In this document: positions 37,174 through 64,000 of the stretch, one piece after another | How the letters are laid out: the number at the start of each line of letters is the position of its first letter | Numbering within the stretch: the first letter of the stretch is position 1 | Source: Dictyostelium discoideum | Taxonomy: Eukaryota | Assembly (NCBI GenBank): GCA_000004695.1 | Contig: CM000151.3 | Location: 6,752,001-6,816,000, forward strand | Length of the DNA stretch: 64,000 bases | Direction: 5' to 3' | The notes under the pieces: generated by a model | The model's input: only the letters and a program-made list of their open reading frames with translations | Database searches by the model: none | Told to the model about the DNA's origin: nothing | Made by a program: the position numbers and the translations under genes

Positions 37174-40100
37174 ATGAATGATGAATATAATGAAAAATTA
37201 TTTTGGAAAGTTTTTAAAAATAAATATTTATTAAATTATATATTAAAAAATAAATGTTGTCATAAAAGTAAAAAATTTAAAACTATTATATCAATAAATT
37301 CAATGTTAAATCATAAACAATATCAACTATTGATATGCAAATTGAAAGCAAATGAAAATTTATACTATGGTATTGATTTTGAAAGTCGGTTTCCCAAAAT
37401 TTTGGAGAATATTGGGGAAATAGATGATTTTGAAGCATTCAAAGAGATACATTCATTGTTATTTTTAAAAGGATATGAACATCATGGTAATAATTATTCT
37501 TGGTATATGAAATTATTAACAAGGTTCGATTTAGGTCCAAAATTTGAAATTTATTTAGATTTACACTTGAAATATTATCAACAGGAATTAAAACAGTATA
37601 TATTAAATAATATGGATGAAGTATTTTATTATTTTGATTCAAAATGTATTAATAAAATTTTAAATTGTTTTCAACAACAATCCATCAGTAATAAACCATT
37701 TACTCTTTCTTCATTTGAAAGAAATCATTTACTTATTAAATTTTTAAATAGAAGTAATCCAAAAGAATTAATGAAAAAGCTTAAAATAATATCTAAAATT
37801 CCAATTTCACCAACTTCACAATTGAAACGTATTGATGAAAATTTAAGATTGAGTTTTGGCTTGTATTTAGAATATTTAAAACAACTAAAACAATTTGGAT
37901 TACAAAATATTCCAACGTTTCTCCTCTGTCAAAAACTGTCGGGTGGAGAATTTAATTCTGAAATTAAAAGATACATAATGAACGATAAAGGAAATTTAGA
38001 GTATTCTTCTTTATCCGTTTATTCAATTTTATTATATTTTAAAATGTATTATAACAGCTATGATTATCGTAGTATACCAAGATCCATTCAAACTCAAATT
38101 GATATAATAATTGAAAATAGTAAACACAGACGTTGTACACCATATCAATCAACTAAACAACTATTTCAACTATTGGCCAGTGAAACCAAATCAATTGCTC
38201 TATATACATTGTATTTAAAAGAGTATGATGAACCAATCGAAACCATTGAAATTAATGAAAAAATTTTACTATATATCATGATAAAAACCTATAGCATCAA
38301 TATATTGAAATTTCTATTGAAAAATCATATAGAAATTGAATCTGAAAAAAATAAATTAATTGATGATTTTGATTTATATGATCTAGGAAAAATATTTAAA
38401 AATAGTAAATTTGATAAAAGAAATATTATTAAATTTTTCAAAGTCTTCTCATCACAAAAATCAATTATTATTAAAAATTTTGATCAAGACAAAGAATTGT
38501 ATCCAATTTCATTTAATCAATTATGTATGTCTAAATGGAAAGAAATTATATCAAATCTAATCGATAAAGATATGATTGTTACAATTAAAGATAAAGAAAC
38601 AATCGATTGGTTATCCGATACAAAAATAGGTGGTTGTAGTTATATAACAATAAGAGATGCTTTAAATTCAAAATTAAAACAATTAAAACTTCAATTTGAC
38701 ACATTGGAACTATTAGATTATGCAAGATTAAAATTAAATCAAATTATTCAAAATTTTGATTCAAATCAAGAAATATGCAATATTCACATTTTACGTACTC
38801 ATGATGATATTGTATCATTAATCAATCGTTTAAACGAATCAAACTTTAAAAATAATGAAGATTTATTTAAATATTATATGGTCCAAATTATTCAATTTGG
38901 TTCAAGAAATTCAATCAAATACCAAAGGTTATTTTGTGATAATTTTGATGAGCTACGTTATAGTGGTACCAAAAGTTTGGATGAATATATTAATACTATC
39001 AAATTTGTTGGCGAAAGGTTTATTGAATCAAGCAATTGTTGTGAAAGTAAACCAGAATATCGTAAAAATGAAAAGCCCCGTAATTACAAAATACCAACTC
39101 AACAAACATGTCAAATAATCAATCTTTCTAAAATTAAAGTCAATGTCAGTCACTTTCCAAATGCAACATCTTATTTATTACAAAAATTTATCCAGCTTTT
39201 GGACATTGACGGTGTTCAATTTATTCTTGATAATTTAAATGGTAATGGAGTAGGAATAGATGAATATTCATTTATTGATACATCTGGTCTCAAGAAATAT
39301 ATCTGTGGATATTTATATAAAGACTTAATGGTTTTTATTCAATTTATAATTGATAAATTCAACCAACACCAATATAATATATCATTATCAAATTTATCAT
39401 TTTCTTTAAATTTCTTATTTTCAAACTTATTAAGAATTAAAAATTTAACTATTGATCAAATCAAATCAGCATATCAATTAATATCCAACTATGTTGAAAT
39501 TAATTGTTCTGATATCCATTCACATTATTATTTAAATACATTATCACCATTGATTGGATCACTTTCTGTTCGTTCTTTCTCAATAGAAAGATTCTGTACA
39601 TATGAAACAGATGCAAAGGTATATACATTTGGATACATTTTTAAAAATAGAGATAATAATGATTTACATCAATTTATCGATTCAACAATCATGGATATTT
39701 TAAAAAAAAAACCATTTAAAAGATTAATATCATTTCATAGTCTACTTGTACATATGTTAGATAATAATAATCCAAGAATTAATTTATTTTTATATTATTT
39801 CAAAATGCAATTAGAGTTTATAAAGACAAATGAAATCAAAGAACCATTTTTACATTATAAACTATTTAAGTTAATAATTAAAACATTTGATTTAGAATCA
39901 TTTATTAAATTAGATAATTTATTACAACAATATAATTTCTATTTTAAAAAAGATGAAGATAGTGATGAAGAAGAATGTGAATATAAAAATTCTAAAAAAA
40001 AACCCAAAACATCAACATCGAATATGGTTGAATGGTTTGGTGTAAATATTTACAAAGATTATTCAGATTATCCAGATATTATTAATTACTTATATAGTAA

Positions 40101-40248
40101 ATATAGTCTTCAATTGGAACCATATTTGGAATACTATGCATTTGATCGTATTAAACAAAAAACCTTTGAACAATACTGTACAAAAATTCCTCACGGAAGG
40201 AGAATAATAAACAAAAAAAGTGGGGCAGAGAGGGTATTTGGTATTTAA
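37174..40248 (+). CDS. Member A (intact, 1024 aa) of a lineage-specific, probably Dictyostelium-specific, protein family of unknown function
   Basis: Single long ORF (MNDEYNEKLFWKVFKNKYLLNYILKNKCCHKSKKF…). It shares collinear blocks with the copies at 59793..62683 and 63001..end (…IPISPTS…, …SIQTQIDIII…KQLFQLL…ETKSI…YLKEY.EPIETI…, …WKEI.SNLID.D.IVTIKDKETIDWLSD…, …CNIHILRTHDDIVSLINRLN.SNF.NNEDLFKYYM.Q.IQFGSRNSIKY…, …KEPFL..KL.KLIIKTFDLESFIK.D.LLQQ…). Confidence 0.8.
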   Translation: MNDEYNEKLFWKVFKNKYLLNYILKNKCCHKSKKFKTIISINSMLNHKQYQLLICKLKANENLYYGIDFESRFPKILENIGEIDDFEAFKEIHSLLFLKGYEHHGNNYSWYMKLLTRFDLGPKFEIYLDLHLKYYQQELKQYILNNMDEVFYYFDSKCINKILNCFQQQSISNKPFTLSSFERNHLLIKFLNRSNPKELMKKLKIISKIPISPTSQLKRIDENLRLSFGLYLEYLKQLKQFGLQNIPTFLLCQKLSGGEFNSEIKRYIMNDKGNLEYSSLSVYSILLYFKMYYNSYDYRSIPRSIQTQIDIIIENSKHRRCTPYQSTKQLFQLLASETKSIALYTLYLKEYDEPIETIEINEKILLYIMIKTYSINILKFLLKNHIEIESEKNKLIDDFDLYDLGKIFKNSKFDKRNIIKFFKVFSSQKSIIIKNFDQDKELYPISFNQLCMSKWKEIISNLIDKDMIVTIKDKETIDWLSDTKIGGCSYITIRDALNSKLKQLKLQFDTLELLDYARLKLNQIIQNFDSNQEICNIHILRTHDDIVSLINRLNESNFKNNEDLFKYYMVQIIQFGSRNSIKYQRLFCDNFDELRYSGTKSLDEYINTIKFVGERFIESSNCCESKPEYRKNEKPRNYKIPTQQTCQIINLSKIKVNVSHFPNATSYLLQKFIQLLDIDGVQFILDNLNGNGVGIDEYSFIDTSGLKKYICGYLYKDLMVFIQFIIDKFNQHQYNISLSNLSFSLNFLFSNLLRIKNLTIDQIKSAYQLISNYVEINCSDIHSHYYLNTLSPLIGSLSVRSFSIERFCTYETDAKVYTFGYIFKNRDNNDLHQFIDSTIMDILKKKPFKRLISFHSLLVHMLDNNNPRINLFLYYFKMQLEFIKTNEIKEPFLHYKLFKLIIKTFDLESFIKLDNLLQQYNFYFKKDEDSDEEECEYKNSKKKPKTSTSNMVEWFGVNIYKDYSDYPDIINYLYSKYSLQLEPYLEYYAFDRIKQKTFEQYCTKIPHGRRIINKKSGAERVFGI

Positions 40249-40442
40249 AAATATAATTTAAAAATATTTTTATTTTTTGTACAAAAAATTTAAAAATATA
40301 ATTTAAAAAAATAATAAAAAATAATAAAAACAGATAAAGATTTTTTAAATTAAATACAAATATAAATTTATTTTTATTTGGTGTTGTGATTTTATTTTAG
40401 AATTAATTTTATTTTTAATTTTTTTTATCAATTGTTTTTAAT

Positions 40443-43412
40443 TTAAAATAATCCATTATCAACACGTAATTGTTTAGTTTTCCAAGCAGGAGTTTTTTGG
40501 AAGATTTCTTTTGTCATTTTAAAGGTTGATAAAAATTCTTCATCAGAAAGGTACAAGTGAAGACAACTTTTATCAATATCATTTGGTAAATTAGTTTTTT
40601 GTTTTAAAACTGATAATGGATAGAATGTTGTAATTGTAGTTGGTGATGGAGTAGAGGTATTTGTAGTGGTAGCAACTTTAGATGGAGTAGTTACAGTTGT
40701 TGGCTTTAAAGTTACAGCAGGTGTAACTGTTTTTAGAGTAGCTACTGTCGGTGTAGTTATTGGTTTAGGAGTAGTTACTGTTGGTGTAGTTATTGGTTTT
40801 GGAGTAGCTGCTGTTGTTGGTTTTAAAGTAACACCAGAAGTAGGTAACATAATTGGAGAAGCTGGACCACTATTGTTTGAACCAAGGATAGCACTTAATT
40901 TTGATTTATAAGAATCTTGTTGAGTTTTATTAACTTGCCAAGCATGGAAATTAAAAGTGAATTCATGTGGTTCAAAACCATCTTGAATGGTAAAGATTGG
41001 ATCATCTCTTCTATGAGTTGGAGCATTCATAATATACTCGAGAGCAGTTTCATTTGCCATTAATTTTTCAGTATCACTACTTTCTTTACCAACCCAAACG
41101 AAAATTTGTTTTTGATTATCCAAGATCATTACATCATCAGAATCTAAATCATCTTGAGAGAAATCATGAATTTCAAATACTTTGAATACACCACTATTAT
41201 TTGAACATTGGAATAAACGAGTTTTCTTCTCTTGTTCAACGGTTCTCAATTGAGTGTAATAATCTTTTAAGAGTGATAAGGATGAGTTTGTTTCTAAAGA
41301 TTCCCAAAATTCAGAAGTTTCATCACCTTCATCAATCAATTGGAAATTATAACCAGTGAAAACATTTGAAGAAATTTGAAGGGCAGCTTCTTTTTCATCA
41401 GAGTATTTACCAACCCAAATATAGGAAATTGTATTTTTAAAATTAACTAAAATGAAAGAATCATTTGAATCCAATGATGAAATTGCTTTTTCAACTTGAA
41501 TTGAATGAATATTAATTGGCTCAGTACCTCTAACATGATATAAGCCTTGAAGTGATGAAGATAAATTTTCCAATGAAACTTCAGTGGTTGCATTTGGTCT
41601 TGAACCTTTAAAAACAACCATACGACCTTGGAAATGTTCTAAAAAGTGGTTTGGTTCTTTATTTTGAACGGTTCTGACATGAATACAAGAACGATGCAAT
41701 TCTTTACCAACATCTTTAGCCAAAAGAGCAGCGGCACCTTTATCTTCACTTGAACTGAATCTACCTTGCCAATAGTATAATATTGAATTATTTGAGCCAT
41801 CGGCAGCAAATAAAGTAAACAATACTAAATAACAAGATTGATTATAGAATAAACCAAATTCAGATTGAGAAATTTCAAATTTATTACGATTTCTAACATG
41901 CCAAATCTTTAATTCACCTCTATGTTTATCATCGACATGATGAAGAGTTGGAATAGTTGATTTTCTTTCTTCCTTTGAAAGTTGATATTTTTCAGGATTA
42001 TGAAGAGCATCTACATTGATTTTCTCTTGAACTGCTTTGGCAGCAACACCTTTACCTGTGATTGGTTTCTTTTCAAAGTTATCATTAACATATTCACCCC
42101 AACTACCTTTTTTAAATTTATCTTTAAAGAGAGTATTCTCAGAGCCTTGAGTCATCTTTATAATTGGTGTCCAACTTGGTCTATTATCTTCATGTAATAA
42201 ATCCATTGCATTTGCCATTGCAACTGTTCTTTGATCATTTGCTGATGCTTTACCTAACCAAACGTATAATTCGGTTTCACAATCTAAAATATAACAAAAC
42301 TCTGCATTCAATTGAGTGGTTGAATAAACATCACCAATTGGATCGATTAGATGAAGATGTACTTCATAATTTAAATTTTCAACTTGATATAATTTAATTT
42401 GTTCAACCGATTTCTTTTCATAAGCGAAATCATCACCACCTTGTTCAGCTTTTTGAACATCATCTTTGCAACCACCTAATCTCTTCCAAAATTCTGGATG
42501 ATCCTTATCGGTATCATTTTCATCCATAACGATAATCTTTGCTTTTGCTGATTTTTCATCACGTAATCTAATGGTAAGATCTAAACCTTTACCTTTTTCT
42601 AAACGACTTGATTCGCTTCCATTCCATTGATAAATGAAATCCTCACAATCCAATACGAAAACATCGCCACTATTTAATGACTTTGATGAAATATCAACTT
42701 GTTTAACTCTAATATTACGTCTACCCTTAAGGTGGAATAATTTATATTGTTTTGCTGCTGTTGCAATTGCTGCTGATGCTGATGTTAATTTCAATGGTGC
42801 AACATATCTTGGACCACCATAAGATTTAAAGTATGACATAAAAATATCACCTTCTTTACCTTGAAATTCTCTATAAAGAATTGGTTCTGGATAAAATTGT
42901 TCTGAATCAAATTGTTTTTGATTATATTTAATAATTCTTTCAAGTTCTTCAATTCTATCATTACAAAAATTAATTGTTTCTTGTGAATTTATTAATAATT
43001 CACCAATCCAAAAATGAATATTATAAGTTTTAATATTCATATTACCATCATAAAATTGTCCCTATAAAATTTTTTTTTTTTTTTAAAAAAAATAATTAAT
43101 AAATGTATAATTAATTTTAAAAAAAAAAAAAAAAATTAATTAATTACAAACCATTAATAATAAATAAGATTTATTAGTTTCAAAAGTTGAATGATTCACT
43201 TTTGGAACTTTTTGAATTGTTGAATCATCAATAATTTTCCAAATTTCTAAACCAATTTCTTTACCAATTTCATTTATATGACTAAAACATGAAGATTGTT
43301 GTAAATTTTCTCTGTTTTTTTCTGCTTCAATTTCTGCATTTCTTTTGAGGATACCAAATTTTGATGGGATAACTCTTTTTCTTTGTGTTGGTAGTTCAAG
43401 TGGTGGTTCCAT
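40443..43412 (-). CDS. vilB: Villin/gelsolin-family actin-binding protein with six gelsolin repeats and a C-terminal villin headpiece. 2 exons, 959 aa (protovillin-like)
   Basis: Exon 1 is 43152..43412 (MEPPLELPTQRKRV…EIGLEIWKIIDDSTIQKVPKVNHSTFETNKSYLLLM), the gelsolin S1 start (compare villin GLQIWRIE…FFDGDCYIVL). An intron of about 90 nt lies at 43062..43151. Exon 2 is 40443..43061 (GQFYDGNMNIKTYNIHFWIGE…), joined in phase 0. Headpiece …LSDEEFLSTFKMTKEIFQKTPAWKTKQLRVDNGLF. The PT-rich linker has a repeated TPKPITTPTV unit. The total of exactly 959 aa matches the published size of Dictyostelium protovillin. The symbol is given on that basis. Confidence 0.8.
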
Positions 43413-43914
43413 TTTAAAAAGTACAATATTTATAAATTTACAATTTTTTTAAATAAAATAAATTAAAATAAAAAAATAAAATAAAATAAAAAGTAAAAAA
43501 ATAAAAAGAAAAAAAAAAAAAATTAAAAAAAAAAAAAAGAATAGGAAAAAAAAAAAAAAAAAAAGAAAAGAAAAAAATTAAAAAAAATAAAAAAAATTTG
43601 AATAAAAATTGATAAATATCTTAATAACCATTTTTTTTAATTTTTTTTGATTTTTTTTTTTTTTCCTTGATTTTTAAAAAAACTTTTTTTCAGATCTTTT
43701 TTTACTAACCGCCGATTCTTTTTATTTGAAATAATCAAAATTTATTTTTATTTTTATTTTATTTTATTTTTTTTTTTTTTTTTTGTTACTTTTAGAAAAT
43801 GGAAAAGTAGATAAACAAGAAATTAAAAAGTTTAATTTTTTTTTTTGAAAAGTTTTATTTATTTTTTTTTTTTTTAGATTGGAAAAAAAAAAAAAAAAAA
43901 TTTATTTATTTTAT

Positions 43915-46856
43915 TTATTCATCAAAATCCTCAACTTCTTCATTTTCAGCTTCATTAATTTTTAAATTATTTAATGCATTTGGTAAAAGATTTAAATCTT
44001 TAATATTTACAGTCAAGAAATCAAAAGCATAAGAAACATTTTGATTAAAATCATCATCATCTTCATCTTTCATTGGTAAACTTGCTTTAACATTTGGATA
44101 ACGTTGAGAGAAATGAGTTAAAATTGTAGAATGAGAATTTGATTGATTAAAAGCTTTGATTGCATCTTTAAATGTACAATGTCTTTTTTGATTTGCTTTA
44201 TCTTGCTGACAATCATGAAAAGTTGCTTCATGAATAACTATAGTACTATTGTCAGCCAATTCAACAAATTCACTACAGTAAGAAGTATCACCAGAATATG
44301 AAACTTTCCAACCATTTTCACTCTCAATCATAATACCATGAGCACCAAATGAATGAATCACTGATACAGCAATACATTTAACAATACCCAATTCTTTCTT
44401 TAAAAATTGACTAAATATTGAATCTTGTTGATAATTTGAAAAATTAAAAAATTGAACATATTTCCAAATACCTTTAAATCCATTATTATTATTATTATTA
44501 CCATTATATAATGTAAAAGATTTTTCTAAATCTCTTATATATAAATTTGCACCTGGTGGTGATAAAATTACTAAGGAACGTTTTTCAAATGGTATATAAA
44601 ATTCATCCATTGCTAAATGTCTAACTTGTAAAAGTTTTTGAAGATCTTGATGATGATCAGCATGTAAATGTGAAATGAAAATGAATTTTAAAGTTGATAA
44701 GATTTCTTTGGTTTTTTGATCACCATATTTTCTAAATAATTGTGAATAGGCACCACCACCTGTATCAAATAATATTGAACCTTTATCAAATAGATTTAAA
44801 AGTATACAAGTTTCTGATCTAAATAATGAAGTTTGTGAGCAACCAGTACCCAAGAAAACAATCTCCAATTCTCTATCACTTAAACTTTTAATTAATTTAT
44901 TTTGACTTTTAATAAATTCATTTCTTGATGAACTAATTAATGATTTTCTTTTATTATTAATAATTGATTTTGATGATGTTGATGATGGTGATGGTGATGA
45001 TGGTGATGTTGGCGATGTTGATGTTGTTGTTGTTGTTGAATTTAAATCAAGAGATTTTAAAGGTGATGATGGTGGTGATGGTGATTTCATTTCAAAAGTG
45101 TAATCGATATCTTGATTTTCAATGCATGCAGAATTATCAAATAATGGATGACCTAAAGGTGATAAAGGGTTCATAATTATAGTTTGATGGAATCTACCCC
45201 TTTGAATATTTGGCATTGATGAGATTGTTTCAGGTAATGGTAAACTATTGCAAGGTGGATACAGTTTTGGATAGAATGTTGGTGAAACTTTATTCAACCC
45301 GTTAACTAATTGACCAGATAATTGAATTAGTTCATGATATGCACAACTTTTATTTAAAATGATATGTTGCCATTTTTCATTTGAAAATTTCATAACAAAT
45401 TCACAATACTCTTTCGATGAGAATATCTCCTCAGGCACCATATGAACTATACAACCACTTCTAATTGGATTACCATTCCCACTATAGGATAGAATTTGTT
45501 GGTTATTAATTATGGATTCTAAATAATCAATACTTGGACATGCTATAATTATCATTGCAGGACCTATGGTGGAGGGTGATAACACCTCTTGGGGTGTCAC
45601 GACTCTGCCTACTTTCTCACTGAACACTGATTCACCTTTACAAAGCTTCGATCTTCCAATACCGACTATACCAAGTTCATTTGCTTTCTCAATTGAAAAT
45701 TTACCAATAATATCAGGTAGATGACAAATATAGCAAATTACATCAGAAGATCTTTGTGATTTTGGGAATGTTACATTATGTGAATTTATAGGCCCATAAA
45801 TTGGATCCTTTAAATAAATGTTCATTCTCTTTCTAACCATATCACGTTTCTCTTTATTGGTTAATCTTAATGATTTAGTTAATCTTGTAATTAATCTAAA
45901 ATGTCTACTTTCCATACACCAAAATTCTTTTTCACTTGAAATTAATTTATTATTATTATTATTATTATCATTTTCATCTAAACAATAATTTGAATCTGAA
46001 TTATCAGATAAAAACTTTTTAATTAATTTTGAATTTTTTGGTTTAAATTGAAATAATTCTTGTTTACTAGAAATTTTAGTTGTACCTGCTTTAATATCCT
46101 CTTTTAATAATTTATAAGAAGCGTATTGTTCAATTTCACTCATTGTAAATTCTGATCCAGTGCTTGAATGAATAATACCACCACGTAATATTGTCCAATC
46201 ATAAAATGATTTTGATGATCCAATTGCAACTTTCATCGAATTATTATTTGATGGTCTTTCAATAGCTCCAAATGATTTATTAAATGTAAATGGTAATGAT
46301 TCTACTGTTTTCATTGTTACATTTGGTGAAGATGATGAACAAGATGATGATGATGATGTTGATGATGTTGATGATGATGAATTATCAATTGAACTTTTAA
46401 TTACAACTGGATAAACTGATAAATGACCATCTGATAAATGAAATGATTCATCATCACTACATTCTGTAATACAGAATGTTTTATATCTTTTACTCAAAAA
46501 ATATCTATATGACATTAAATTTGATGTTAACCCATTTGGTCCAATAATTGATAAATCACCTTTATTACGTAATACATAATCTAAAATAATAATAATAATA
46601 ATAATAGTTAGAAAATAAACAATATATATTATATATATTGTTTACTACATACTTAAAAAATCAGTTTCAGTTGAAGGATCTAAATGAGTTAAGAATAGTA
46701 TATCTGAATCAGCTGGTTTAGAATGACTTGATCCCAATGATTGTCTATGAATACCATTACCCATATTAAAACAATACTTTTGATTACCATTTGTAATCAT
46801 TACTGAAGAATCTGTGTGACCTGATCCTGTTGACATTATTTTTATTGATGCTTTCA

Positions 46857-46857
<1 letters not shown>
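43915..46857 (-). CDS. Long-form ribonuclease Z (tRNase Z, ELAC2-like; metallo-beta-lactamase fold), 2 exons, ~956 aa
   Basis: Exon 1 is 46653..46857 (MKASIKIMSTGSGHTDSSVMITNGNQKYCFNMGNGIHRQ…DPSTETDFL, donor GTATGT). The intron is about 72 nt. Exon 2 is 43915..46580 (…NYVLRNKGDLSIIGPNGLTSNLMSYRYFLSKRY…), which continues into track ORF 43915..46515. C-terminal MBL domain with LGTGCSQTSLFRSETCILL, FDTGGGAYSQL and the catalytic His motif FIFISHLHADHHQD. Confidence 0.75.
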
Positions 46858-46899
<42 letters not shown>

Positions 46900-47874: not shown

Positions 47875-47924
<50 letters not shown>

Positions 47925-48974: not shown

Positions 48975-49065
<91 letters not shown>

Positions 49066-49370
49066 TTTACCTGAAAATCTTGCAATGTCATCTAAAAAGT
49101 ATTGTGAAGATGAATGTAATTGGAAATTTGAACCACTATTATTAGCAGCATTAATGAATGATTCATTTTTAGAAAGTTCTGCAACTCCTTTTAATACATT
49201 TTTATCTAAATTTGTATAATTTTTAGTTTCATAAATTTCTTCAATCTATTTTTATGTATTTTATAAGAAAAGTGAAAAAATAAAAAAAATAAAAAAAAAA
49301 AAATTTAAATTAAAATTAAAATTAGTCGCAATTTGGCTTGGGGAAATTTTTTTTTTTTTTTTTTTTCAAA

Positions 49371-51849: not shown

Positions 51850-52587
51850 TAAAAGTAAAATAAAAAATAAAAAATAAAAGAATAAAAAAATCAGATGAGT
51901 TGTTTTTTTTTATTTTTATTATTTTTTTTTTGCTCAGAGTTAAAAAATATCTTTTTTTTTCAATCAGTGAAAAAAAAAATTGAAATTATTTTTAAAAATA
52001 ATTCGATTTGATAACCGCTTTGATTTTGAATAATAAAAATAAAAAAAAAAATAATGAAAATAAATTTTTTTTTGATATTTTTTTTTTTAATTCACTTAAT
52101 ATGATTTTACCAAAATTTTTTCCTTTTTATTTTTATAATGGGGTTAATAATTCCCACTATTTTGATTTTCTTTTTTTTTTTTTTTTTTTTTTTCATTTTT
52201 TAAAACCTTTTTCAACGAATTAAAATAAAATAAAACAAAATAAAATAAAACAAAATAAAATAAAATTTTGTTTCGAAACCTCATAAAAAAAAAAAAAAAA
52301 AAAAAATATTCAAGACCCCACACAATTGTTTGTGCAGTACAAATTTGTGTCAAGTAATCATGTGATTCGGCACTTTGATCAACAACAAAAATTTGATTGA
52401 CACTCTCATCGTCTTCGGCATTTTTAAAATTATAATAATTTCTAGAAATCGCTATTTTTATTTTTAATTTCTATTCCATTTCTATTTTAATTATTATTAT
52501 TTTATTGCTTATTCTAAAAAATAAAACTTTTTTACAAAATTAAATAAATTAAATTAAATAAAATTAAATAAAATTAAATTAAATTAA

Positions 52588-52632
<45 letters not shown>

Positions 52633-52849
52633 AAAAAACACTAGGAAAGAAAAGTGTTTTTTATTTTTATTTTTATTTTTCTTAAAAATCCAAATTGTGT
52701 TAACAACAAACAGAACCACTTTGAGTCTTGTAATCAGCATTTTGATCAACACTTGAATGAATTGTACCATCTTCTTCTTTTTGAAAATAATAACCAACAA
52801 AAATGGAATTGGTTTTTTAAATTCCATCTCCATTTTTTTTAAATACATT

Positions 52850-52863
52850 TTAATAATTTTGGT

Positions 52864-52896
<33 letters not shown>

Positions 52897-53178
52897 CATC
52901 ATAATAATAATAATAATCATAATTAATATTATTTAGAAGACTATTTTGGGGATAAAAATCATTTTTTGGATTACTTGATAAAGAGGATGCTGTAGAGAAT
53001 TTTCCTTCAAAAAATATATTACCAGTTTTATTATTATTATTATTATTATTATTTTTATTTTTATTTTTATTTTTATTTTTATTATAATCTACATTTGTAA
53101 TATCAAAGGTTAATGGGTTTTTAACTCTATCTGATATATCAATTTCACGACTATCTCTATATCTTTTAACACCACAAA

Positions 53179-53213
<35 letters not shown>

Positions 53214-53473
53214 TTGATGGATGATGTTGAAGATGTACATGAATATGAAAAAGATGATGAAGTTGTTGATAAAGATGAAAATGTGGTAAAATCCTCACTA
53301 AAATCGGCTTTTTCAATATTTTCCTTATTTTCCAAATTAAATACTGAATAATCAATTTGTTTAAATAATTGTTGGATTTTAAATAATTCTTCTCTAATAT
53401 TTTTTAATTCATTATTACCATTATTATCCCTATCTCTTAATAATAATTTATGATCACTTTCAGTAGTTTCCAT
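52850..53473 (-). CDS. Hypothetical low-complexity protein (S-rich). The C-terminal polyY is read-through of an ATT repeat and is probably not coding
   Basis: The N-terminal 60 aa (METTESDHKLLLRDRDNNGNNELKNIREELFKIQQLFKQIDYSVFNLENKENIEK) look protein-like. The remainder is serine and N/K homopolymer. Confidence 0.3.
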
Positions 53474-54087
53474 ATTTTATTTATTTATTTATTTTTATTT
53501 TTTTATTTTTAAAATATTTATTTCCTAATTATGTTTATTATTGTTTATAAGTCCCTTTGGTTATATAATAATAAAAAAATAAAAAAAAATAAAAAAAAAA
53601 TAAAAAAAAAAATAATAAAAACAAAAAACAAAAAAAAAAAAAAAAAAAATATAAATAAAATAAATTAAAAAAATAAAAAACAAAACAATAACAAAAAGAA
53701 AATGAAAAAAAAAAAAAAGAATTATAAAAATTTGAAAAAAAAGACTAAACAAGTGTTTAAATAAATTTTAAAAAAAAAAAAAAATAAAAAAATATAAAAT
53801 AAAGGAAAAAAAGTTTATAAACTGATATTTTTGGTATGTTTAATTATTAAAAAAATTTTAAAAGTGATTATTTTTTTTTAAAAAAAAAAAAAAAAGATTT
53901 AAACTAATTACATTACATTTTTTTTATTTTATTTTTTTTTTTATTTTATTCTAAAATTGAAATTCTATGAATTTTTGTTTTTTTTTTTAAACACTATTCC
54001 ATTTTTTTCAAACAATCGAAATAGGAAAACAACCAATCGAAACAATTAAAAAAAAAACAATATAACCCTAATTTGGTTTTGTATTTA

Positions 54088-54135
<48 letters not shown>

Positions 54136-54162
54136 TTCTAATTCAAGTAATAGTTTATTTTA

Positions 54163-54515
54163 TTATAAAACTAAAGTATCTCTAATTCTATGAATAAATG
54201 AATGATTAAATATTTTTTTAGATTCTGAAATAATTAGTTCTAATTTTCCTTCATATGATAAATTTTGATCTTTTATATTTTTTTGACCAACATTTGAAAT
54301 TAATAAAAATAAATTATTCATTGATAAATTTGGAATTTGGTGATGACCTCCCTCTAATATTTTTTCTAAAAATCCTAATTCTTTCTCAATATTTTTATTA
54401 TCATTTTCTTCATTTATTTTAAATATATAAATTGAATTTTTATTATTTAAAGATTGTTTTTTAATTTTATCAATTATTTGATTATTTGAAAATTTTGAAA
54501 ATTGAATTATACTAC

Positions 54516-54555
<40 letters not shown>

Positions 54556-54938
54556 GTTATTATTATTATTATTATTAATATTACTATTATTAGTTGTAAA
54601 TAAATTTAATAAGAAATTAATAGTTTTATCATAATCATCTGTTGAAATATGAATTGATATTGGTCTTTTATAATTTTTATCATTTTGAATATTTGCAGAA
54701 TTTGATAAAATTTGAGATTTCATTGAATTTCCAAAATATTGAAATTCATCTGGATAATTAAATTTATTTATTAAATCTTTAAAATCTTTATCAGCAACAT
54801 AACTACTTGCTTTATTTTTATTATCTTTTAAAAATGGATATCTATCATTAAAAACTATTGCAATGAGTACTATCAAAAATAAATAAATTATTATTTTTTT
54901 TTTATTTTTTTTTTCATTTTTATAATCTTTAACTTTAA

Positions 54939-54996
<58 letters not shown>

Positions 54997-55386
54997 ATTA
55001 CTATTATTATTTAATATATTTGGTTTTTGTTTTTGAGGAGAAGAGGAAGAAGAAGAAGAAGAGGTTGATAATGGTGGTGGTGGTGTATTTAAAAGTGAAG
55101 ATGATCTTGATTGAACTATAATTTCCTCCTTTTTATAAAAACTATTATTATTTATAGTTTTTGGTAAATATTTTTTTTTGTCAGTATTATTGATGTTGTA
55201 ATTTTCTTCATCAGTTTCAGACTCTTCTTCGCTATCATCTTTGTCATCATTTTGAGTTTCGCTATCGGAACTATTTTGATTTTCAGTTATTGAATTTTCA
55301 TCATCTTCATCTTTTTCATAATATTCATCTTTTTTGTAATTATTTTTAGTAATTTCTAAATTATCTGTATAATATTCAATTTCCAT
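54163..55386 (-). CDS. Hypothetical single-pass membrane protein (acidic N-terminus, one TM helix IIIYLFLIVLIAIVF, N-rich spacers), 407 aa
   Basis: ORF with ATG, an acidic cytoplasmic N-terminus, a hydrophobic segment and a C-terminal region of normal composition (…ELGFLEKILEGGHHQIPNLSMNNLFLLISNVGQKNIKDQNLSYEGKLELIISESKKIFNHSFIHRIRDTLVL). No family recognised. Confidence 0.5.
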
Positions 55387-55403
55387 CTATCTTTCTATCT
55401 CTT

Positions 55404-55478
55404 TTTTGTTGTTTTATAACTTGAGGGATTGAAAAAAAAAGGAAAAAAAAAAAAAAAAAATTAAATAAAATTAGTGGG

Positions 55479-55509
<31 letters not shown>

Positions 55510-55545
55510 CCTTTTTTGTTTTATAACTTGAGGGATTGAAAAAAT
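55404..55545. repeat. ~30-bp direct repeat (TTTTGTTTTATAACTTGAGGGATTGAAAAAA) present twice ~105 bp apart in the 5' flank of the minus-strand gene at 54163..55386
   Basis: Read directly in the sequence at about 55404-55436 and 55510-55545. Confidence 0.7.
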
Positions 55546-55797
55546 AAAATAAAAAAAAAAAGAATTAAATTAAATTCATTTTGGTAATTTTAATTTTTTG
55601 ATCATTTAAATAGATTAAAAGAAACAATTGCATCTTCTTTTATTTAACTAAAAACTATTTTATTTTATTTTTTTTTTATTTTTTTTTTTATTTTTTTTTT
55701 ATTTTTTTTTTTTCCCACAACCCAAAATAAAATTTTTTTAAAATTTGAAAAAAAAAAAAAAAAAAAAAAAAAAAACAAATAAAATAAAAAATAAGAA

Positions 55798-56245
55798 ATG
55801 ACCATTTTTAAAAAAGGTATTGAAAAAATTCAAAAATCTAATAAAAATATCATTATTAGATCTTATTCAAGTAGGTACAGATTTAATAATTATTAAAAAA
55901 TCCATATTTATATAAAAAAAAAAAAATTAATTTTAAAAAAAAAAAAAAAAAAATATATATATATGTATAGAAAGTAGGTATGAAGAAATTGTAAAATTAA
56001 GAGAAGGTTATAGTAGTGCACAAGTTGAAGAAAATGATTTATCAAAAGAAATTATGGATAGAATAAAAGATAGAAGAAAACAACAACCAAATTATCGTGA
56101 TGATATTAATGATGATTCTACTGTATATTCATCAAGAAAAGATGAACAATTTAAAGAACAAAGTCATTTAATAATAAATGGAAGAAAAGTTTCTTGTGAC
56201 ATACCAAAAGATCAAGTAGAAGTTGTATCTCTTAAAGATTATTAA
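55798..56245 (+). CDS. Putative small protein (~116 aa, 2 exons) with a basic, presequence-like N-terminus
   Basis: Exon 1 is 55798..55874 (MTIFKKGIEKIQKSNKNIIIRSYSS-, donor GTACAG). The intron ends …ATATATATGTATAGAAAG. Exon 2 is 55975..56245 (…RYEEIVKLREGYSSAQVEENDLSKEIMDRIKDRRKQQPNYRDDINDDSTVYSSRKDEQFKEQSHLIINGRKVSCDIPKDQVEVVSLKDY*), which contains track ORF 56054..56245. Confidence 0.35.
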
Positions 56246-56700
56246 TAATAAAAAAAAAAATTATAAAATAAAATAAAATAAAAAAAACTTTGTACATAAA
56301 AGAAAAGCAATTTGCGATAGCGAGAGATACCACCCAATTTTTTATTTTTTTTCATTTTTTTTTCATTTTTTTTTTATTTTTTTAATTTTTTGGAGTTCGT
56401 AAATGGGCAATTATTTTTAATGTGACAAAAAGTTGTCGAGTTTTTTCAATTTTTTACTTTTTTTTTTTTTTTTTCGTATTTTTTTTATTTTTTTTTTTTG
56501 GGCTAACCTAAAATTTTTTTTTTTTTTCTTTTTTTTTTTTCTTCCTTTCCACTATCAACAATATTGTTATACTTGAAACAGGTACAGATACACCCTTTGT
56601 TATTAATTTAAAATGTTTAAATGTCAAACTTTATTGTATTCAATTTTAATTGATACAGCATTGCACACACATGCATTTCAAATAATAATCATCCAATAGG

Positions 56701-56778
56701 TAAAGTAAACATTATGAATCAATTTGAAATTATCTTTAGCGTACAATTAAAATAATTTCAAACATAATGTTTACTTTA
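56701..56778. other. Extended near-perfect hairpin (16-bp stem + 6-nt bulge + 11-bp stem, 18-nt loop): candidate structured ncRNA or regulatory element
   Basis: TAAAGTAAACATTATG-aatcaa-TTTGAAATTAT-ctttagcgtacaattaaa-ATAATTTCAAA-CATAATGTTTACTTTA. It sits in a locally less AT-rich patch (56560-56860), about 400 bp upstream of rps15a. Confidence 0.5.
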
Positions 56779-57159
56779 GAGACCTACTTTTAAATACAAA
56801 AAGGATATCTCATCTCTGCACTCAAGTATAAACCTCTTGCAGCTCTAGAGGATTATATATTTTTTTTTAAAAAAAATAGAGATAAAGTCCCAGAATATTT
56901 AAAATAAAAATAAAATATTATTTTAACTCCAAAAAAAAAAAACCAAAACCAAAAAAAATTAGCATCATTCAAAAAGATATTTTGGAATTTTTTTTATTTT
57001 TGGATATAAAATATATTTATATTTTTTTGGAAATTAGATAATTAATTGACTGATGTGTTTAGAGACAAATTAAAGCATTTAAGTATAAAATTTTAAAAAA
57101 TAAAATATTAACCCCCCTTTATTTTTTTTTATTTTTTTTTCTCTTTTAACAGATACAAA

Positions 57160-57552
57160 ATGGTCAGAATCAGTGTTTTAAACGATTGCTTAAACTCCAT
57201 TGTCAATGCCGAAAGACAAGGTAAAAGACAAGTCTTAGTCAGACCATCATCAAAAGTCATCGTTAAATTCTTAGAAGTTATGATGAAAAAGAGATACATT
57301 GGTGAATTCGAAATCGTTGATGACCATCGTTCCGGTAAAATTGTCATTGATTTAATCGGTCGTATCAACAAATGTGGTGTCATCTCCCCAAGATTTGACG
57401 TTACTTTAGACGAAATCGAAAAATGGGCCTCTTACTTACTCCCATCCCGTCAATTCGGTCATATCGTCCTCACCACCTCCCTCGGTATCATGGACCACAA
57501 CGAAGCCAAAACCAGACACACTGGTGGTAAATTATTAGGTTTCTTCTATTAA
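57160..57552 (+). CDS. rps15a: 40S ribosomal protein S15a (uS8)
   Basis: The 130-aa ORF is near-identical along its length to eukaryotic RPS15A: [89 protein letters not shown]…[35 protein letters not shown]. Confidence 0.95.
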
Positions 57553-57777
57553 ATTGCTAGTCTTTTTTAAATAAAATTAAAATATTATTTAAATCCTTTA
57601 AAATTTCTTTTTTTTTTTTTTTTTTTTTTTTTTTTCTTTTTCTTCCAAAGCCTTAATTTATTAGTTTCTAATAATAAAATTATCGTAGTGTGTTTATTTT
57701 TAACAAAACCTTAAATTTAAACTAACAATAAATAAAAAATATATTTTCTATACAAAATTGGTGTTTATTAACAATTA

Positions 57778-59185
57778 TTATAATGGTGGATGTAATGTTT
57801 CTTTTTTAATTAGTTTCGTAGGTTTTAAATATTCTATAGTATTATCTAATTTTCCAATTACAATCGTCTTATCACCATTATTTTCAACTTGACCAATAGA
57901 CAGGGTGTGACACCAATCATCCAATGAATGGTCACATATTACCTAAATGTTTTTTTTTTTTTTTTTTTTTAAAATAAAGGTTAGGAATTAAGAATTTATA
58001 AACAATAATGAAAATATATTATTTAAACATACCTCTTTATTATAAAACATTTTTATTGAATTAAAATAACCAGTACATATCAAAATATCTAAATCATCGT
58101 CAACATCATCATCATCATCATCACCATTTGAATTATTATTACCATTATAATTATTATCATTATCATTATTATTTATATCAGAGTATTTCATTTTATTTAA
58201 TTTTGTAATCGGATAACCAATTTGACAATAAGGATATATTTTAAAATCAACTAATAAATATATGAAACCATTCTCACAACCTAAAGCTATTTGTGGTGAT
58301 AATGAAGCTGAAGATGAAGAAGTTGAATTTGAATTTGAAGAAGCATTTGATGATGGTGATGATGTTGAAAGGTTTGAATCAAAATAACCAATACACATAC
58401 AATTAACAGGTGATGGTGTTGGAATTGAACATAATCTTTTACCTTGATCAAGTATATGAATAAATGATGCATTTTCACTAATGACTAAATAATTGAATTT
58501 ATTTTTAAACATATCATATCCTTCAACTGATTTCATATCCTTTATATGTAATGATGTTCCAATAGTATTTGTTGTATCATAATTAATTTTTATATTTGGA
58601 TTAATTGCAATAATATCTGAATCTATTAATGAATTTAAAGTTTGATTTACACTTGGTATTTTATATCTCCAAATTGCATTTTGATGTGGTTTTATTGACG
58701 TCACTAAACCTAAACTATCTCCAACTACAATATTAAAATCATTATCTTTTTTTTTTTTTTAAAAAATAATATTTAAATTTTATTATTAATAATAGTTAAA
58801 ATAAATTATATAATAATATATATATTTTATTAATATACTTACTTGATAGTCTGTGAGTAATTATTGAAGTGATTGAACCATTGAGAGTATCTCTATATAG
58901 GATTTGATGATTTGAAAAAATAACTAAATTACCATTTGAATCACCTGAAATTACATCTATTGATCCAAATTTAGTTGTGTCTAATAATTCTAATTGTTGT
59001 ATTGATGAACCCTTTGTTTCTAATACTTCAATTTCTTCATCATTTAAATAAACTATAATCTTTCCATCAACAGTCCCAATCAATAAATGTTTATTTGTAC
59101 TTTTAAAAATTTCACCAACTAATATACAATTAAAATCATATCCAATTACTTTTTTAAACTTTGAAATTAATTCAATATTTATCAT
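57778..59185 (-). CDS. Beta-propeller (WD40-like) repeat protein of unknown function, 3 exons (~406 aa)
   Basis: Exon 1 is 58843..59185 (MINIELISKFKK…ITHRLS-, donor GTAAGT). Exon 2 is 58033..58745 (-NDFNIVVGDSLGLVTSIKPHQNAIWRYK…MFYNKE, donor GTATGT). Exon 3 is 57778..57942 (VICDHSLDDWCHTLSIGQVENNGDKTIVIGKLDNTIEYLKPTKLIKKETLHPPL*). All junctions are in phase. The 'M' of track ORF 57988..58704 is a GTG inside exon 2. Repeated G-[DS]-x-x-G-x-h-x-h motifs suggest a propeller. Confidence 0.55.
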
Positions 59186-59259
59186 TATTATTATTATTTT
59201 GAAATAATAAAAAAAAAAATAAAAAAAAATAAAAAAAAAAAAAAAAAAAAAAAAAAATG

Positions 59260-59290
<31 letters not shown>

Positions 59291-59792
59291 TTAATAATAA
59301 ACCCGTTCTACCCTTTTTAATTTTCATAATAATTATTATTTTAAAAAAATCCTTTTTAGGACCAAAAAAAAAAGTAAAAAAAGTGGAGAATCTATTTACT
59401 AGTATAAATAATTTCTACAATTTAGTTTTTTATTGTCATCAATGCATCCATATTTAGTAAAATGACTTTGTGACTCTGTGCGGAATTCAAACACATAGGT
59501 ACTAATAAAATGATAGAGAAAGGAAATATTTATGGTTTATGTCAATTTTCCGTATCCAGTGTCATATTATAAATCTATCTATGCACTATGACAAATTTGA
59601 TTGAAAAAAAAAAAAATGTTCTGGACCCAGAAATAAAATTATTATTATTGGTTTATTTAAATTGTGTTATAATGTATCAATTTAAGAATTTTCATTAAAA
59701 ATTTATTTATATTTTAAATTGGTTGATAAAAAAAAAAAAAATTGATTTTCTTACGATCGTGGGGTCGCACTCTAAATTTAATAATAATTAAA

Positions 59793-62683
59793 ATGAATAA
59801 TGAATGTAATGAATATAGTGAAAAATTATTTTGGAAAATTTTTAAAAATAAATATTTATTAAATTGTATATTTAAAAATAAATGTTGTCATAAAAGTAAA
59901 AAATTTAAAACAATTGCATCAATAAATTCAATTTTAAAACATAAACAATATCAACTGTTGGTATGTAAATTAAAAGCAAATGAAAATTTGTATTTTAACA
60001 ATACATACAGAATTATTGAAAAGATTTATGAAATAAAAGATATAGAATTATTCAAAGAGTTAAATTCATTATTACTCACCAAAGGTTATCAAGAAGATGT
60101 TAAAATTTTATTTGATGGCGACTGTGATATAAAATCAGCAGATTTATTCGATCTTCATTTACAATATCACCCAAAAGAATTACAAACCTATATTACAACA
60201 TCTATAGACTCAATCATCCTATATAATAATCCAAAATTGATAATAGTGGTTTTAAAAATTTTAGAACAGTATATCAATGATAGTAAACCATTTACTCTAA
60301 CAGAAATTGAAAGAAATTATTTCATTGGGGAATATTCAGAAATTGGTAAACATAGAGACCAGGAAATTATTGAAGAATGGATTAAAATGATATCGAATAT
60401 TCCAATATCACCAACTTCTATATTAGGTACCAGAGAATATAAAGTAATTCGAGGTGTGGATCTGTGTTGGTATTTAAAATATCAAAAATTACTACCTATG
60501 GTGTATAGTATCAAAACATCATTTGATTCAGAGGAGAATCAACGATTTGGTTTATATAAAAGTATTGAGCAACATGGTGTTAATCTGTCGAATAATAGTT
60601 TAAGTTTAGTTTCAAGTTTTCGTTGAGGCTTTGATAAATGTATTAAAGAGCACATAGAAGATGTCAAAGGAGAATTGGGGTATATCTCTTCATCTATCGA
60701 TTCAGTTTTATTATATTTTGAATTTTATTATTGCAACTATCATGTTAATAGTAAATCAAAAAGTATACCAACATCGATTCAAACTCAAATTGATATAATA
60801 ATTCAAAATAATAAACCATATCAATCAATTAAACAATTGTTTCAACTATTGGTCAATGAAACCAAATCAATTGTTTTATATGCATGTTATTTAAAAGAAT
60901 ATAATGAACCAATTGAAACCATTCAAACCTGCCAAAAAATTCAGTTATTGTTGATGTATTTCATGACAAGAGCTTATAACACCAATGTTTTAATGTTTCT
61001 ATTGAAAAAAGATTTACAAATCAAATTAACTTCGGACTATAGCGAACCATATCTCAACATTTTATTCAGATGTAATCAAATCGATAAAACCAATACTATT
61101 ATATTCTACAATACCTATACATCACAAAAATCAATCATTGCGGAAGATATTGATAAAAAACCACTGGATGATTTAATATCAACAAAGGATCTTGTTGATT
61201 TTGGTAATAAACAATTTCATTCAATTTTAGGTAATGAGTCATCATCGAAATGGAAAGAAATTACATCAAATCTAATTGATCATGATAATATTGTTACAAT
61301 TAAAGATAAAGAAACAATCGATTGGTTATCAGATAGAAACAGGTGGTTGTAGTATTTTAAATATAAGAGATGCTTTACATTCAAAATTAAAACAAATGAA
61401 ACTTGATTTTAGTACATCGGAATTATTAGAATATGCAAGAATCAAATTTAAACAAGTAATTCCAATTTTAGATTCAAATAAAGAGTTGTGTAATATTCAC
61501 ATTTTACGTACTCATGATGATATTGTATCATTAATCAATCGTTTAAACCAATCAAACTTTAATAACAATGAAGATTTATTTAAATATTATATGATTCAAC
61601 TAATTCAATTTGGTTCAAGAAATTCAATTAAATACCTAAGATCAATTTGTGATAATGTTGGTGAAATAGATTTTGTTTTAAAAATCATGGTTGAACATTT
61701 TAATATTGAAGAATACTCCCTAGGAGCAGATATTCAGGATGATTCACCAAGCTATCATCAAAATGATGAATTCAACAAATACAAAATACCAACTCAACAA
61801 ACATGTCAAATAATCAATCTCTCAAAAATTAAAGTCAATGTCGACCACTTTCCAAATACAACTTCTCATTCAAACATTTATCAAACTTTTAAATTTTGAA
61901 GGTGTTCAATTTATTCTAGAAAATTTAAATGGTAAAAATTTAGAATTAAATGAAAAAGCATTTAAAGATCGTTTCCGTAATAGAATATATATCTCCAAAT
62001 ATTCATATAAAGATTTAATTGATTTTATTCAATTTTTAATTGATAAATTCAAAGATTGTCAATTATCATTATCAAATTTATCATTGATATTAAATTACTT
62101 ATTTTTAAAGTTAATTAGAGTCAATAGTTTAACAATTGGTCAAATCAAAAAAGCATATCAATTAATATCACACTATATTGAAATAAATCGTTCAAAACAC
62201 AATTCATACTATTATTTAAAAACATTATCACCAATTATTGGATCATGTATTACCGTTGGTGAAGATCCAACAAATGGTTCTAAAAGAAATGGACCATACT
62301 TTAATTATGATATAGATACATCAGTATATACATTTGAATATATATTTAAAAATAATAATCCAAGAATCAATTTATTTTTTCATTATTTCGAAATGGAATT
62401 AGTAGAAAAAAAAAAGATAAACCAAATCAAAGAACCATTTTTAAATTTTAAACTATTGAAATTAATAATTAAAACATTTGATTTGGAGTCATTTATTAAA
62501 TTTGATAGTTTATTACAACAACATGAATTCAATTTAAAAAGAAAGAACCATAATGTTGTTAATGGTGAGCAAGAGGATGCAAATGATTCAAATTTTTTTA
62601 ATATAAAAGTACAGTTTCGTGTGTTGGTGAGACCCCTTTCAATTTTTTTTGTGTGTGTGATGGTGAGACCCCATGATTCTTGA
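59793..62683 (+). pseudogene. Decayed paralogue (member B) of the 37174..40248 gene family: one in-frame TGA nonsense codon and at least two frameshifts
   Basis: It is collinear with member A, but split into four track ORFs. There is a TGA at 60624-60626 in the same frame (…LVSSFR*GFDKCIKEH…), where member C reads …NFCYGFDKSIKEH…. There is a 1-nt deletion near 61340 (AGAAACAGGTGG versus ACAAAAATAGGTGG in member A). A further frame change lies near 61840-61900. Confidence 0.65.
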
Positions 62684-62861
62684 ATAACAAAGAAAAAAAA
62701 TTAATTTATTTTATTATTTTTTATTTTTAATTTCTTTTTTTTTTGTTTTTGGTTGGTTTATTAAAAATAAAAATTAATTTTTTAAAAAAAAAATATATAA
62801 TCAAACTCTAAGTTTTTAACAAAAACAACAATCATAATAATAATTAATAGTAATATTAATA

Positions 62862-62870
<9 letters not shown>

Positions 62871-62950
<80 letters not shown>
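62871..62950. repeat. (AAT)n microsatellite between family members B and C
   Basis: Read directly in the sequence. Confidence 0.95.
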
Positions 62951-62956
<6 letters not shown>

Positions 62957-63000
62957 TTAATAATAATAAATAATAATAATAAATAAAATAAATAATTAAA

Positions 63001-64000
63001 ATGAATAATGAATATAATGAATATAGTGAAAAATTATTTTGGAAAGTTTTTAAAAATATATATTTATTAAATTGTATATTTGATAATAAATGTTGTTACA
63101 AAAGTAAAAAATTTAAAACAATCACATCAATAGATTCAATGTTAAAACATAAACAATATCAAATTTTGATATGTAAATTAAAAGCAAATGAAAATTTGAA
63201 TTTTAAGAGTACATATAGAATTATTGAAAAAATTTATGAAATAAAAGATATAGAATTATTCAAAGAGATAAATTCATTATTACTCACCAATGGTTATCAA
63301 GAAGATGTTAAAATTTTATTTGATAGTGACTGGGATATAAAATCAGCAGATTTATTCGATCTTCATTTAAAATATCACCCAAAAGAATTACAAACCTATA
63401 TTACAACATCTATAGACTCAATCATCCTATATAATAATCCAAAATTGATAATAATGGTTTTAAAAATTTTAGAACAGTATATCAATGATAGTAAACCATT
63501 TACTTTAACAGAAATTGAAAGAAGTTATTTCATTGGGGAATATTCAGAAATTGGTAAACATAGAGATCAGGAAATTATTGAAGAATGGATTAAAATGATA
63601 TCGAATATTCCAATATCATCAACATCAATATTAGGTACCAGAGAATATAAAGTAATTAGAGGTATGGATCTGCGTTGGTATTCAAAATATCAAAAATTAC
63701 TACCTATGGGGCATAGTATCAAAACATCATTTGATTCAAAGGAGAATCAACGATTGGATATATTTAAAAATTTTGGGCAACATGGTGTTAATCTCTCCAC
63801 CAAAAGTAAAAGTGCAAGTTTAGTTTCAAATTTTTGCTATGGCTTTGATAAAAGTATTAAAGAGCACATAGAAGATGTCAAAGGAGAATTAGGGTGTATA
63901 TCTACATCTATCGATTCAGTTTTATTGTATTTTGAATTTTATTATTGCAACTATCATGTTAATAGTAAATCAAAAAGTATACCAACATCGATTCAAACTC
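63001..64000 (+). CDS. Member C of the same gene family, 5' end. 3'-partial (runs off the window)
   Basis: MNNEYNEYSEKLFWKVFKNIYLLNCIFDNKCCYKSKKFKTITSIDSMLKHKQYQILICKLKANENL… It is about 90% identical to member B over the first roughly 330 codons. The frame is open to the end of the window. Confidence 0.7.
   Translation, partial: MNNEYNEYSEKLFWKVFKNIYLLNCIFDNKCCYKSKKFKTITSIDSMLKHKQYQILICKLKANENLNFKSTYRIIEKIYEIKDIELFKEINSLLLTNGYQEDVKILFDSDWDIKSADLFDLHLKYHPKELQTYITTSIDSIILYNNPKLIIMVLKILEQYINDSKPFTLTEIERSYFIGEYSEIGKHRDQEIIEEWIKMISNIPISSTSILGTREYKVIRGMDLRWYSKYQKLLPMGHSIKTSFDSKENQRLDIFKNFGQHGVNLSTKSKSASLVSNFCYGFDKSIKEHIEDVKGELGCISTSIDSVLLYFEFYYCNYHVNSKSKSIPTSIQT

Follow-up and report, generated by a model that had tools for sequence, protein, structure and literature searches.

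A Dictyostelium-limited gene family in a 64-kb window of D. discoideum chromosome 2, with a tandem copy that is a multiply damaged pseudogene

The window analyzed here is the whole stretch of 64,000 nucleotides at positions 6,752,001 to 6,816,000 of contig CM000151.3 (Dictyostelium discoideum chromosome 2, assembly GCA_000004695.1), with a G+C content of about 22%. It contains three copies of an uncharacterised Dictyostelium gene family, called A, B, and C hereafter. A is intact, C is the beginning of an intact gene that runs off the window, and B is a pseudogene that differs in state between isolates. The reading that we favor, with a probability of about 0.8, is that of an alpha-helical protein family limited to Dictyostelium, which would be subject to birth-and-death turnover under weak selection and whose products would have a scaffold or adaptor role. 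The corresponding features, numbered from the first letter of the window, are the following (aa, amino acids).

37174..40248, plus strand: member A, DDB_G0276401, intact, single-exon, 1024 aa
37192..37368, plus strand: N-terminal module of A, residues 7-65, LFWKVFKNKYL...KFKTI.S..SM..HKQYQLLICKLKANE
59793..62587, plus strand: member B, pseudogene in three reading frames, paralogue of C (93-94% DNA identity) and orthologue of ACTFIR_006413/ACTFIW_004487
63001..64000, plus strand: member C, first 333 codons of the intact gene DDB_G0276403 (1042 aa), running off the window

The open reading frame (ORF) of A is 100% identical to P0001, annotated as “hypothetical protein DDB_G0276401 [D. discoideum AX4]”. 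The original prediction held that the three copies form one collinear family in the same orientation, and this is what a tblastn search of the window with A returned. B was matched in three successive reading frames (59808-61334, 61312-61869, 61865-62542), with 45-61% amino acid identity and E values reported as 0.0; C was matched at 63001-63999 with 41% amino acid identity (E 1e-52). All these segments are on the plus strand and collinear with A, and the matches go far past what chance would give. Over its 333 residues, C is 100% identical to P0026 (DDB_G0276403), of which the complete version is a single-exon gene of 3129 bp at L005:10001-13129, a locus of a second D. discoideum assembly discussed below. 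B and C are indeed adjacent, and their identity is slightly higher than the 90% or so first estimated, reaching 93% in DNA over 1021 nt from about 20 nt upstream of the ATG. The N-terminal module, the best-conserved block within the family, has its motif at the opening of B (about 59826) and of C (about 63034) as well. Its description as Cys-rich has to be abandoned: the “CC” of the motif is just two adjacent cysteines in a loop modelled with low confidence, where the Dictyostelium purpureum relatives have a longer, Cys-free insert.

The damage to B was read from a five-way DNA alignment of B, C, A, Bo, and Co, the last two being the tandem genes found at the B and C positions in the ACTFIR isolate (locus L001 of GCA_054859385.1). 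Bo and Co are intact, with 1020 and 1038 aa, and are located downstream of the rpS8 gene as in the window. B is 92-93% DNA-identical to L001:10001-13063, which carries the intact, syntenic gene ACTFIR_006413 (1020 aa). A second intact B-type protein, ACTFIW_004487 (1025 aa), belongs to the same 90% cluster as ACTFIR_006413 and is likewise counted as a syntenic orthologue of B. In total, B has five lesions.

60624..60626, plus strand: lesion 1, nonsense codon TGA, where C, Bo, and Co read TAT (Tyr)
61334..61335, plus strand: lesion 2, 2-bp deletion with frameshift, GAT--AGAAACA in B vs. GATATAGAA in Bo and Co
61870..61871, plus strand: lesion 3, 5-bp deletion with frameshift, CATT-----CAAACA in B vs. 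TATTTATTTCAAATA in Bo
62350..62351, plus strand: lesion 4, 99-bp in-frame deletion of 33 codons, seen as three gaps (65+22+12 nt) in the alignment with Bo, Co, and A
62587..62592, plus strand: lesion 5, junction of a 748-bp deletion, L001 12881-13628 being missing from the window

The first three correspond to what the original prediction had noticed, namely an in-frame TGA where C has TAT, a reading that both orthologues share, and at least two frameshifts, which are the 2-bp deletion at 61334 and the 5-bp deletion at 61870. The last two are larger. The BLAST high-scoring segment pairs of B with L001 break at 62354/62351, that is, at the 99-bp deletion. Window positions 62351-62587 then correspond to L001 12656-12880, and the window from 62592 onward corresponds to L001 from 13629 onward. 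The 748-bp deletion thereby took the last 61 or so codons of B, the stop codon, and about 565 bp of intergenic DNA. Hence, B does not extend to 62683 as had been proposed: homology stops at about 62587, and the tail of the ORF beyond this point is unrelated read-through sequence. In a blastx search, the best matches of B are proteins of other genes (top match 88%), and no AX4 protein product of B turned up in the family search. B is a true, multiply damaged pseudogene.

Two explanations would make B a functional gene after all. One is that B is really intact, its stop and indels being errors of the Sanger-era AX4 assembly; this assembly is old, the genome has a G+C content of about 22%, and A/T-rich sequence surrounds two lesions that are small indels. 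We consider this scarcely credible. Assembly GCA_054883475.1 (ACTFIT tags) contains the exact protein C at its locus L005, which differs from window positions 54000-64000 by 4 mismatches and 40 gap positions, and L005 reproduces, letter for letter, the 2908 bp of the whole B region and the context of each of the five lesions. The resequencing across 60624 and 61340 that the original prediction called for is in effect provided by this assembly, in which B is broken identically. Such an exact recurrence in an independent assembly built from long Nanopore and short Illumina reads means that the lesions are not assembly errors; moreover, the 99-bp and 748-bp deletions cannot be base-calling errors. 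The other explanation is that the breaks are short introns, the splicing of which would give a full-length protein. The automatic annotation of GCA_054883475.1 goes in this direction, since it splits B (L005:6793-9853) into two coding gene models, with 510 and 372 aa, the first of which (510 aa over 1560 bp) apparently skips the TGA by means of an invented small intron. We regard this two-gene annotation as an artefact. The orthologues and paralogues of B are continuous and coding over every break, so that the breaks are not introns, in agreement with what had been stated from the start. They consist of one codon substitution and of 2- and 5-bp deletions, with nothing there to splice out, and the conserved C-terminal 61 codons are physically missing. 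Splicing is thus as implausible as sequencing error.

In PMC12745789, Nanopore and Illumina reads were used to assemble ten genomes de novo, for strains that include the laboratory strain AX2-214 and the tropical D. discoideum CR116C and OT3A, as well as the possible cryptic species M4B and S6B, plus others; the assemblies with ACTFI* tags fit this set. We infer that the near-identical assembly GCA_054883475.1 is that of AX2. AX2 and AX4 are both derived from NC4, so that the lesions of B would probably predate the laboratory strains.

B, C, Bo, and Co are mutually 92-94% identical in their common 5' kilobase. The synonymous divergence (dS) is 0.086 between B and C and 0.10-0.15 for the other pairs among these four sequences. 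In a neighbour-joining tree, C splits off first within this clade and B second, Bo and Co being grouped together; A forms the longest and most divergent branch of the family tree. Because dS(B,C) is close to the distances between orthologues, and in view of the tree order, the B/C duplication has about the age of the separation of the NC4 lineage from the tropical isolates, an estimate possibly blurred by gene conversion. Thus, even if the duplication is a tandem one, as predicted, it is not recent, and even if B is a decaying pseudogene, with five lesions rather than three, neither the duplication nor the pseudogene is strikingly fresh.

The ratio of non-synonymous to synonymous divergence (dN/dS, or omega) is 0.42-0.78 for every pair among the members compared, pairs of intact genes included (Bo-Co, 0.54). 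The comparison of B with C that the original prediction had suggested is within this range and does not set B apart from the intact copies. A parsimony count of branch-specific changes, in which the counts are small, gives the B branch an omega of about 0.69, to be compared with 0.47 (Bo) and 0.77 (Co); the B branch is not distinguishable from those of the intact copies. Purifying selection on the whole family thus appears to be only weak, and B does not stand out yet. Along the proteins, conserved blocks (residues 1-60, 455-580, 641-680, 741-780, and 901-920) alternate with variable stretches, a pattern which argues that the intact copies are not simply drifting. A raised mutation rate at the locus was considered and rejected, since the dS of the flanking genes between AX4 and ACTFIR (0-0.14, with omega of 0.13-0.50) overlaps that of the family (0.10-0.15). 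In the same comparison of isolates, window positions 52001-59793 and L001:1912-9672 are 88% identical overall, with 624 gap positions and a very uneven divergence; rpS8 is 100% identical, and in the neighbouring ORFs 1.5-5% of the aligned bases are different and indels in simple repeats are numerous.

A has a different history. The ACTFIY-tagged assembly, which is from “D. cf. discoideum”, has a copy 90% identical to A beside a villin gene, which matches the neighbour of A at 40443..43040, so that the position is syntenic. This copy is broken into five frame segments; it has lost 7, 1, and 1 bp in three deletions, has gained an insertion of 398 bp, contains two in-frame stop codons, and is annotated there as three short genes. 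A is intact in AX4 and broken in ACTFIY, and B is broken in AX4 and intact in two tropical isolates; the living copy therefore differs between lineages. Since different copies are dead in different lineages, single copies are dispensable. In the protein searches, A had no close intact relative in any other genome, the next best protein being 53% identical. These searches showed no close A-like protein among the annotated ones of ACTFIR, ACTFIW, or ACTFIZ, the L001 DNA ending about 12 kb short of the A position.

In AX4, the family comprises DDB_G0276401, DDB_G0276403, DDB_G0276409, DDB_G0276559, and DDB_G0271218, plus B. There are also two shorter models (DDB_G0271262 and DDB_G0276487) and two small N-terminal relics (DDB_G0273369 and DDB_G0277623). 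A second tandem pair, made up of DDB_G0276409 and of a 1101-aa gene, is located about 14-20 kb past C in the opposite orientation. Counting paralogues genome-wide, as had been proposed, gives roughly 6-13 gene models in each of the other isolates, several of them fragments. Many models have consecutive locus numbers, for example ACTFIW_004465-004470 and ACTFIR_006375-006388. Paralogues are 50-60% identical. A protein search with A gave 32 matches, all of them from D. discoideum or cf. discoideum. A family profile built from 23 members was then used in a HMMER search of 1.84 billion representative proteins; it gave 21 matches, all nameable ones being from D. discoideum, cf. discoideum, or D. 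purpureum, and no relative outside Dictyostelium. Judged from sequence, the family is confined to Dictyostelium, as the original prediction had suspected. A full-text literature search on six family gene IDs returned no paper, and the family is not mentioned in the passages of PMC12745789 found by keyword.

The D. purpureum matches are “partial” models of 76-79 aa covering the N-terminal module only. In the DNA, however, the reading frames that these models open continue without interruption, giving ORFs of 1126-1153 aa.

L002:7896-11357 (GL870942.1): DICPUDRAFT_23830 (76 aa, “partial”), ORF of 1153 aa
L003:7338-10718 (GL871065.1): DICPUDRAFT_23422 (76 aa, “partial”), ORF of 1126 aa

The ORF at L003 has about 220 extra N-terminal residues before the family module. 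One D. purpureum ORF has a head-to-head neighbour of about 1100 aa that is 36% identical over its full length, and two further paralogues, DICPUDRAFT_83255 and DICPUDRAFT_100004, are annotated. The D. purpureum relatives, with 1100-1180 aa, are clustered and very divergent; what they have in common with the D. discoideum family is the first 100 or so residues and a C-terminal block. A comparison of the profiles of the two species gave three matches:

D. discoideum residues 1-119 with D. purpureum residues 1-136, E 6e-15
D. discoideum residues 518-569 with D. purpureum residues 475-524, E 0.016
D. discoideum residues 771-907 with D. purpureum residues 720-892, E 5e-5

Because these matches are collinear, the two families are homologous, probably along their whole length. 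The N-terminal module is the part most clearly common to the D. purpureum proteins (hhalign E 6e-15); outside the N-terminus, the families of the two species have diverged almost beyond recognition.

In agreement with the absence of a recognisable domain noted at the outset, a Pfam scan found no domain in A at E ≤ 1. The same scan of a D. purpureum ORF gave nothing meaningful, and the profile searches returned no protein carrying a precomputed Pfam domain. Searches of PDB sequences with the full-family and N-terminal profiles yielded nothing, or chance bromodomain matches at E ~1. An F-box in the N-terminal module, suspected from “LFWKVFKNKYL”, was not supported by the N-terminal model, there being no chain described as an F-box protein in the top 60 matches and no F-box profile match. 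Membership in the FNIP-repeat family (PF05725), considered because of the N-terminal “LF.K...N.YL”, was discarded, as Pfam gives no FNIP match in A. No obvious signal peptide or transmembrane segment was found; the maximal Kyte-Doolittle hydropathy over 19 residues is 1.62, a borderline value, and occurs in a predicted helix. AlphaFold2 run on the family alignment gave an all-helical full-length model of low confidence (predicted local distance difference test, pLDDT, of 57). For the N-terminal 150 aa with D. purpureum sequences added, pLDDT is 75 and the predicted template modelling score (pTM) is 0.66, the fold being made of stacked helical hairpins. The models weakly resemble HEAT/ARM solenoids. 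The proteins are probably soluble, all-alpha, HEAT/ARM-like solenoids of about 1000 aa.

These observations can be combined in the following scenario. The family evolves by tandem duplication and loss. A tandem duplication gave rise to B and C at roughly the time of the split between NC4 (AX4, AX2) and the tropical isolates. Afterwards, in the NC4 lineage, B gained a nonsense mutation, two frameshifting deletions, the 99-bp deletion, and the 748-bp truncation of its 3' end; it is dead in this lineage and still intact in two tropical isolates. A is the reverse case, intact in AX4, with a syntenic counterpart broken in a cryptic sister lineage. As the architecture of the proteins suggests, they would probably act in the cell as protein-binding scaffolds or adaptors. 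The 60-100 residues at the N-terminus, which are strongly conserved, would bind a partner that is itself conserved, and the helical body, which diverges fast, would bind partners that vary. Our best guess is that such a scaffold or adaptor is an intracellular alpha-solenoid in which the N-terminal contact surface is conserved and the body variable. The process itself is ordinary gene-family turnover, and nothing points to a new kind of system.

Several points weigh against parts of this scenario. The identity of GCA_054883475.1 as AX2 was inferred, not read from its record, and the common NC4 ancestor of AX2 and AX4 means that their agreement confirms the sequence of B, not the age of its lesions. 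A dN/dS of 0.5-0.7 also fits strong constraint on some blocks combined with positive selection on others. The confidence of the full-length model is low, and it is poorest over residues 455-580, the most conserved block when family members are compared. Finally, the functional proposal draws on architecture, the searches having brought up no homologue of known function.

Other natures of the family were also weighed. Its members could be F-box-like or ubiquitin-ligase-linked substrate adaptors, the N-terminal module docking on a ligase core and the variable body picking substrates. The proteins fit an adaptor architecture in that their N-terminal module is short and strongly conserved whereas the rest of the chain diverges fast, and tandem clusters, copy-number differences, and pseudogenes fit adaptor families. 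The F-box families of nematodes and plants are expanded and show rapid turnover. We hold this possibility to be unlikely. A similarly doubtful idea is that the proteins are Dictyostelium-specific intracellular alpha-solenoid receptors drawn into an evolutionary conflict, of which intracellular bacteria and social cheating would be possible sources. The N-terminal module would then couple to a common effector and the hypervariable body would recognise changing targets; presence or absence in isolates and pseudogene polymorphism would be functional variation, not neutral decay. Much less probable still is that the copies belong to a mobile element or to an integrated virus and not to the host. 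The family is multi-copy, clustered, variable in number, and genus-limited, with many truncated fragments, as mobile genes might be. However, the positions of A, B, and C relative to rpS8, villin, and DJ-1 are retained in isolates that have diverged, the similarity of B and C starts only about 20 nt upstream of the ATG, and the paralogues are 50-60% identical instead of near-identical. In addition, the Pfam scan showed no transposase, integrase, reverse transcriptase, or capsid domain, flanking terminal repeats not having been specifically searched for.

Some other features of the window may be mentioned. Next to A, the minus-strand ORFs at 40443-43040 (865 aa) and 43915-46515 (866 aa) are of nearly equal length and look like a tandem pair, yet they are unrelated. 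The first encodes a villin-type protein with six gelsolin repeats and a headpiece, and the second carries a metallo-beta-lactamase fold domain. At 20155-25353 on the minus strand, a 1732-aa ORF is unusual in that a single polypeptide unites RCC1 repeats with a protein kinase domain and a HECT ubiquitin-ligase domain. Finally, the region 14958-19773 is occupied by a large inverted repeat bracketed by tRNA genes: tRNA-Phe(GAA) genes in opposite orientation at 14972-15045 (plus strand) and 19686-19759 (minus strand), and a tRNA-Pro(UGG) gene at 19543-19613 (minus strand). The arms of the repeat (15133-16698 and 16853-18404) measure about 1.57 kb, are 94-99% identical, and are separated by a 154-nt spacer. 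The G+C content of this region is raised to 0.40, and it contains ORFs of 417 and 259 aa without Pfam match. The inverted repeat looks like two facing partial copies of a tRNA-gene-targeted retroelement.

What is documented here is a genus-restricted, uncharacterised family without a Pfam model, together with a well-supported pseudogene whose state differs between isolates. For annotation, B is to be flagged as a pseudogene and not as two gene models, and the 76-aa “partial” models of D. purpureum are to be treated as the starts of genes of about 1100 aa. If the fast turnover were to reflect conflict rather than drift, the family would become a candidate for genes of amoebal immunity or social conflict.

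Among the closest known systems are the HEAT/ARM alpha-solenoid scaffolds, such as HEATR1, Tra1, TEL2, and condensin CAP-D3. The F-box and BTB families of nematodes and plants share with the present family tandem clusters, lineage-specific expansion, many pseudogenes and fragments, and a short conserved N-terminal module ahead of a variable remainder; they differ from it in that neither an F-box nor a BTB domain was detected here by sequence or fold. As presented in the keyword-matched passages of PMC12745789, the tgr genes likewise form a multigene family of Dictyostelium, in which duplications are frequent, pseudogenes occur, and the copies present vary from one isolate to another. However, tgr proteins are transmembrane proteins with TIG/IPT immunoglobulin-like domains and are encoded in far higher copy numbers, whereas the family described here appears to be all-alpha and to lack any clear signal peptide or membrane-spanning segment.

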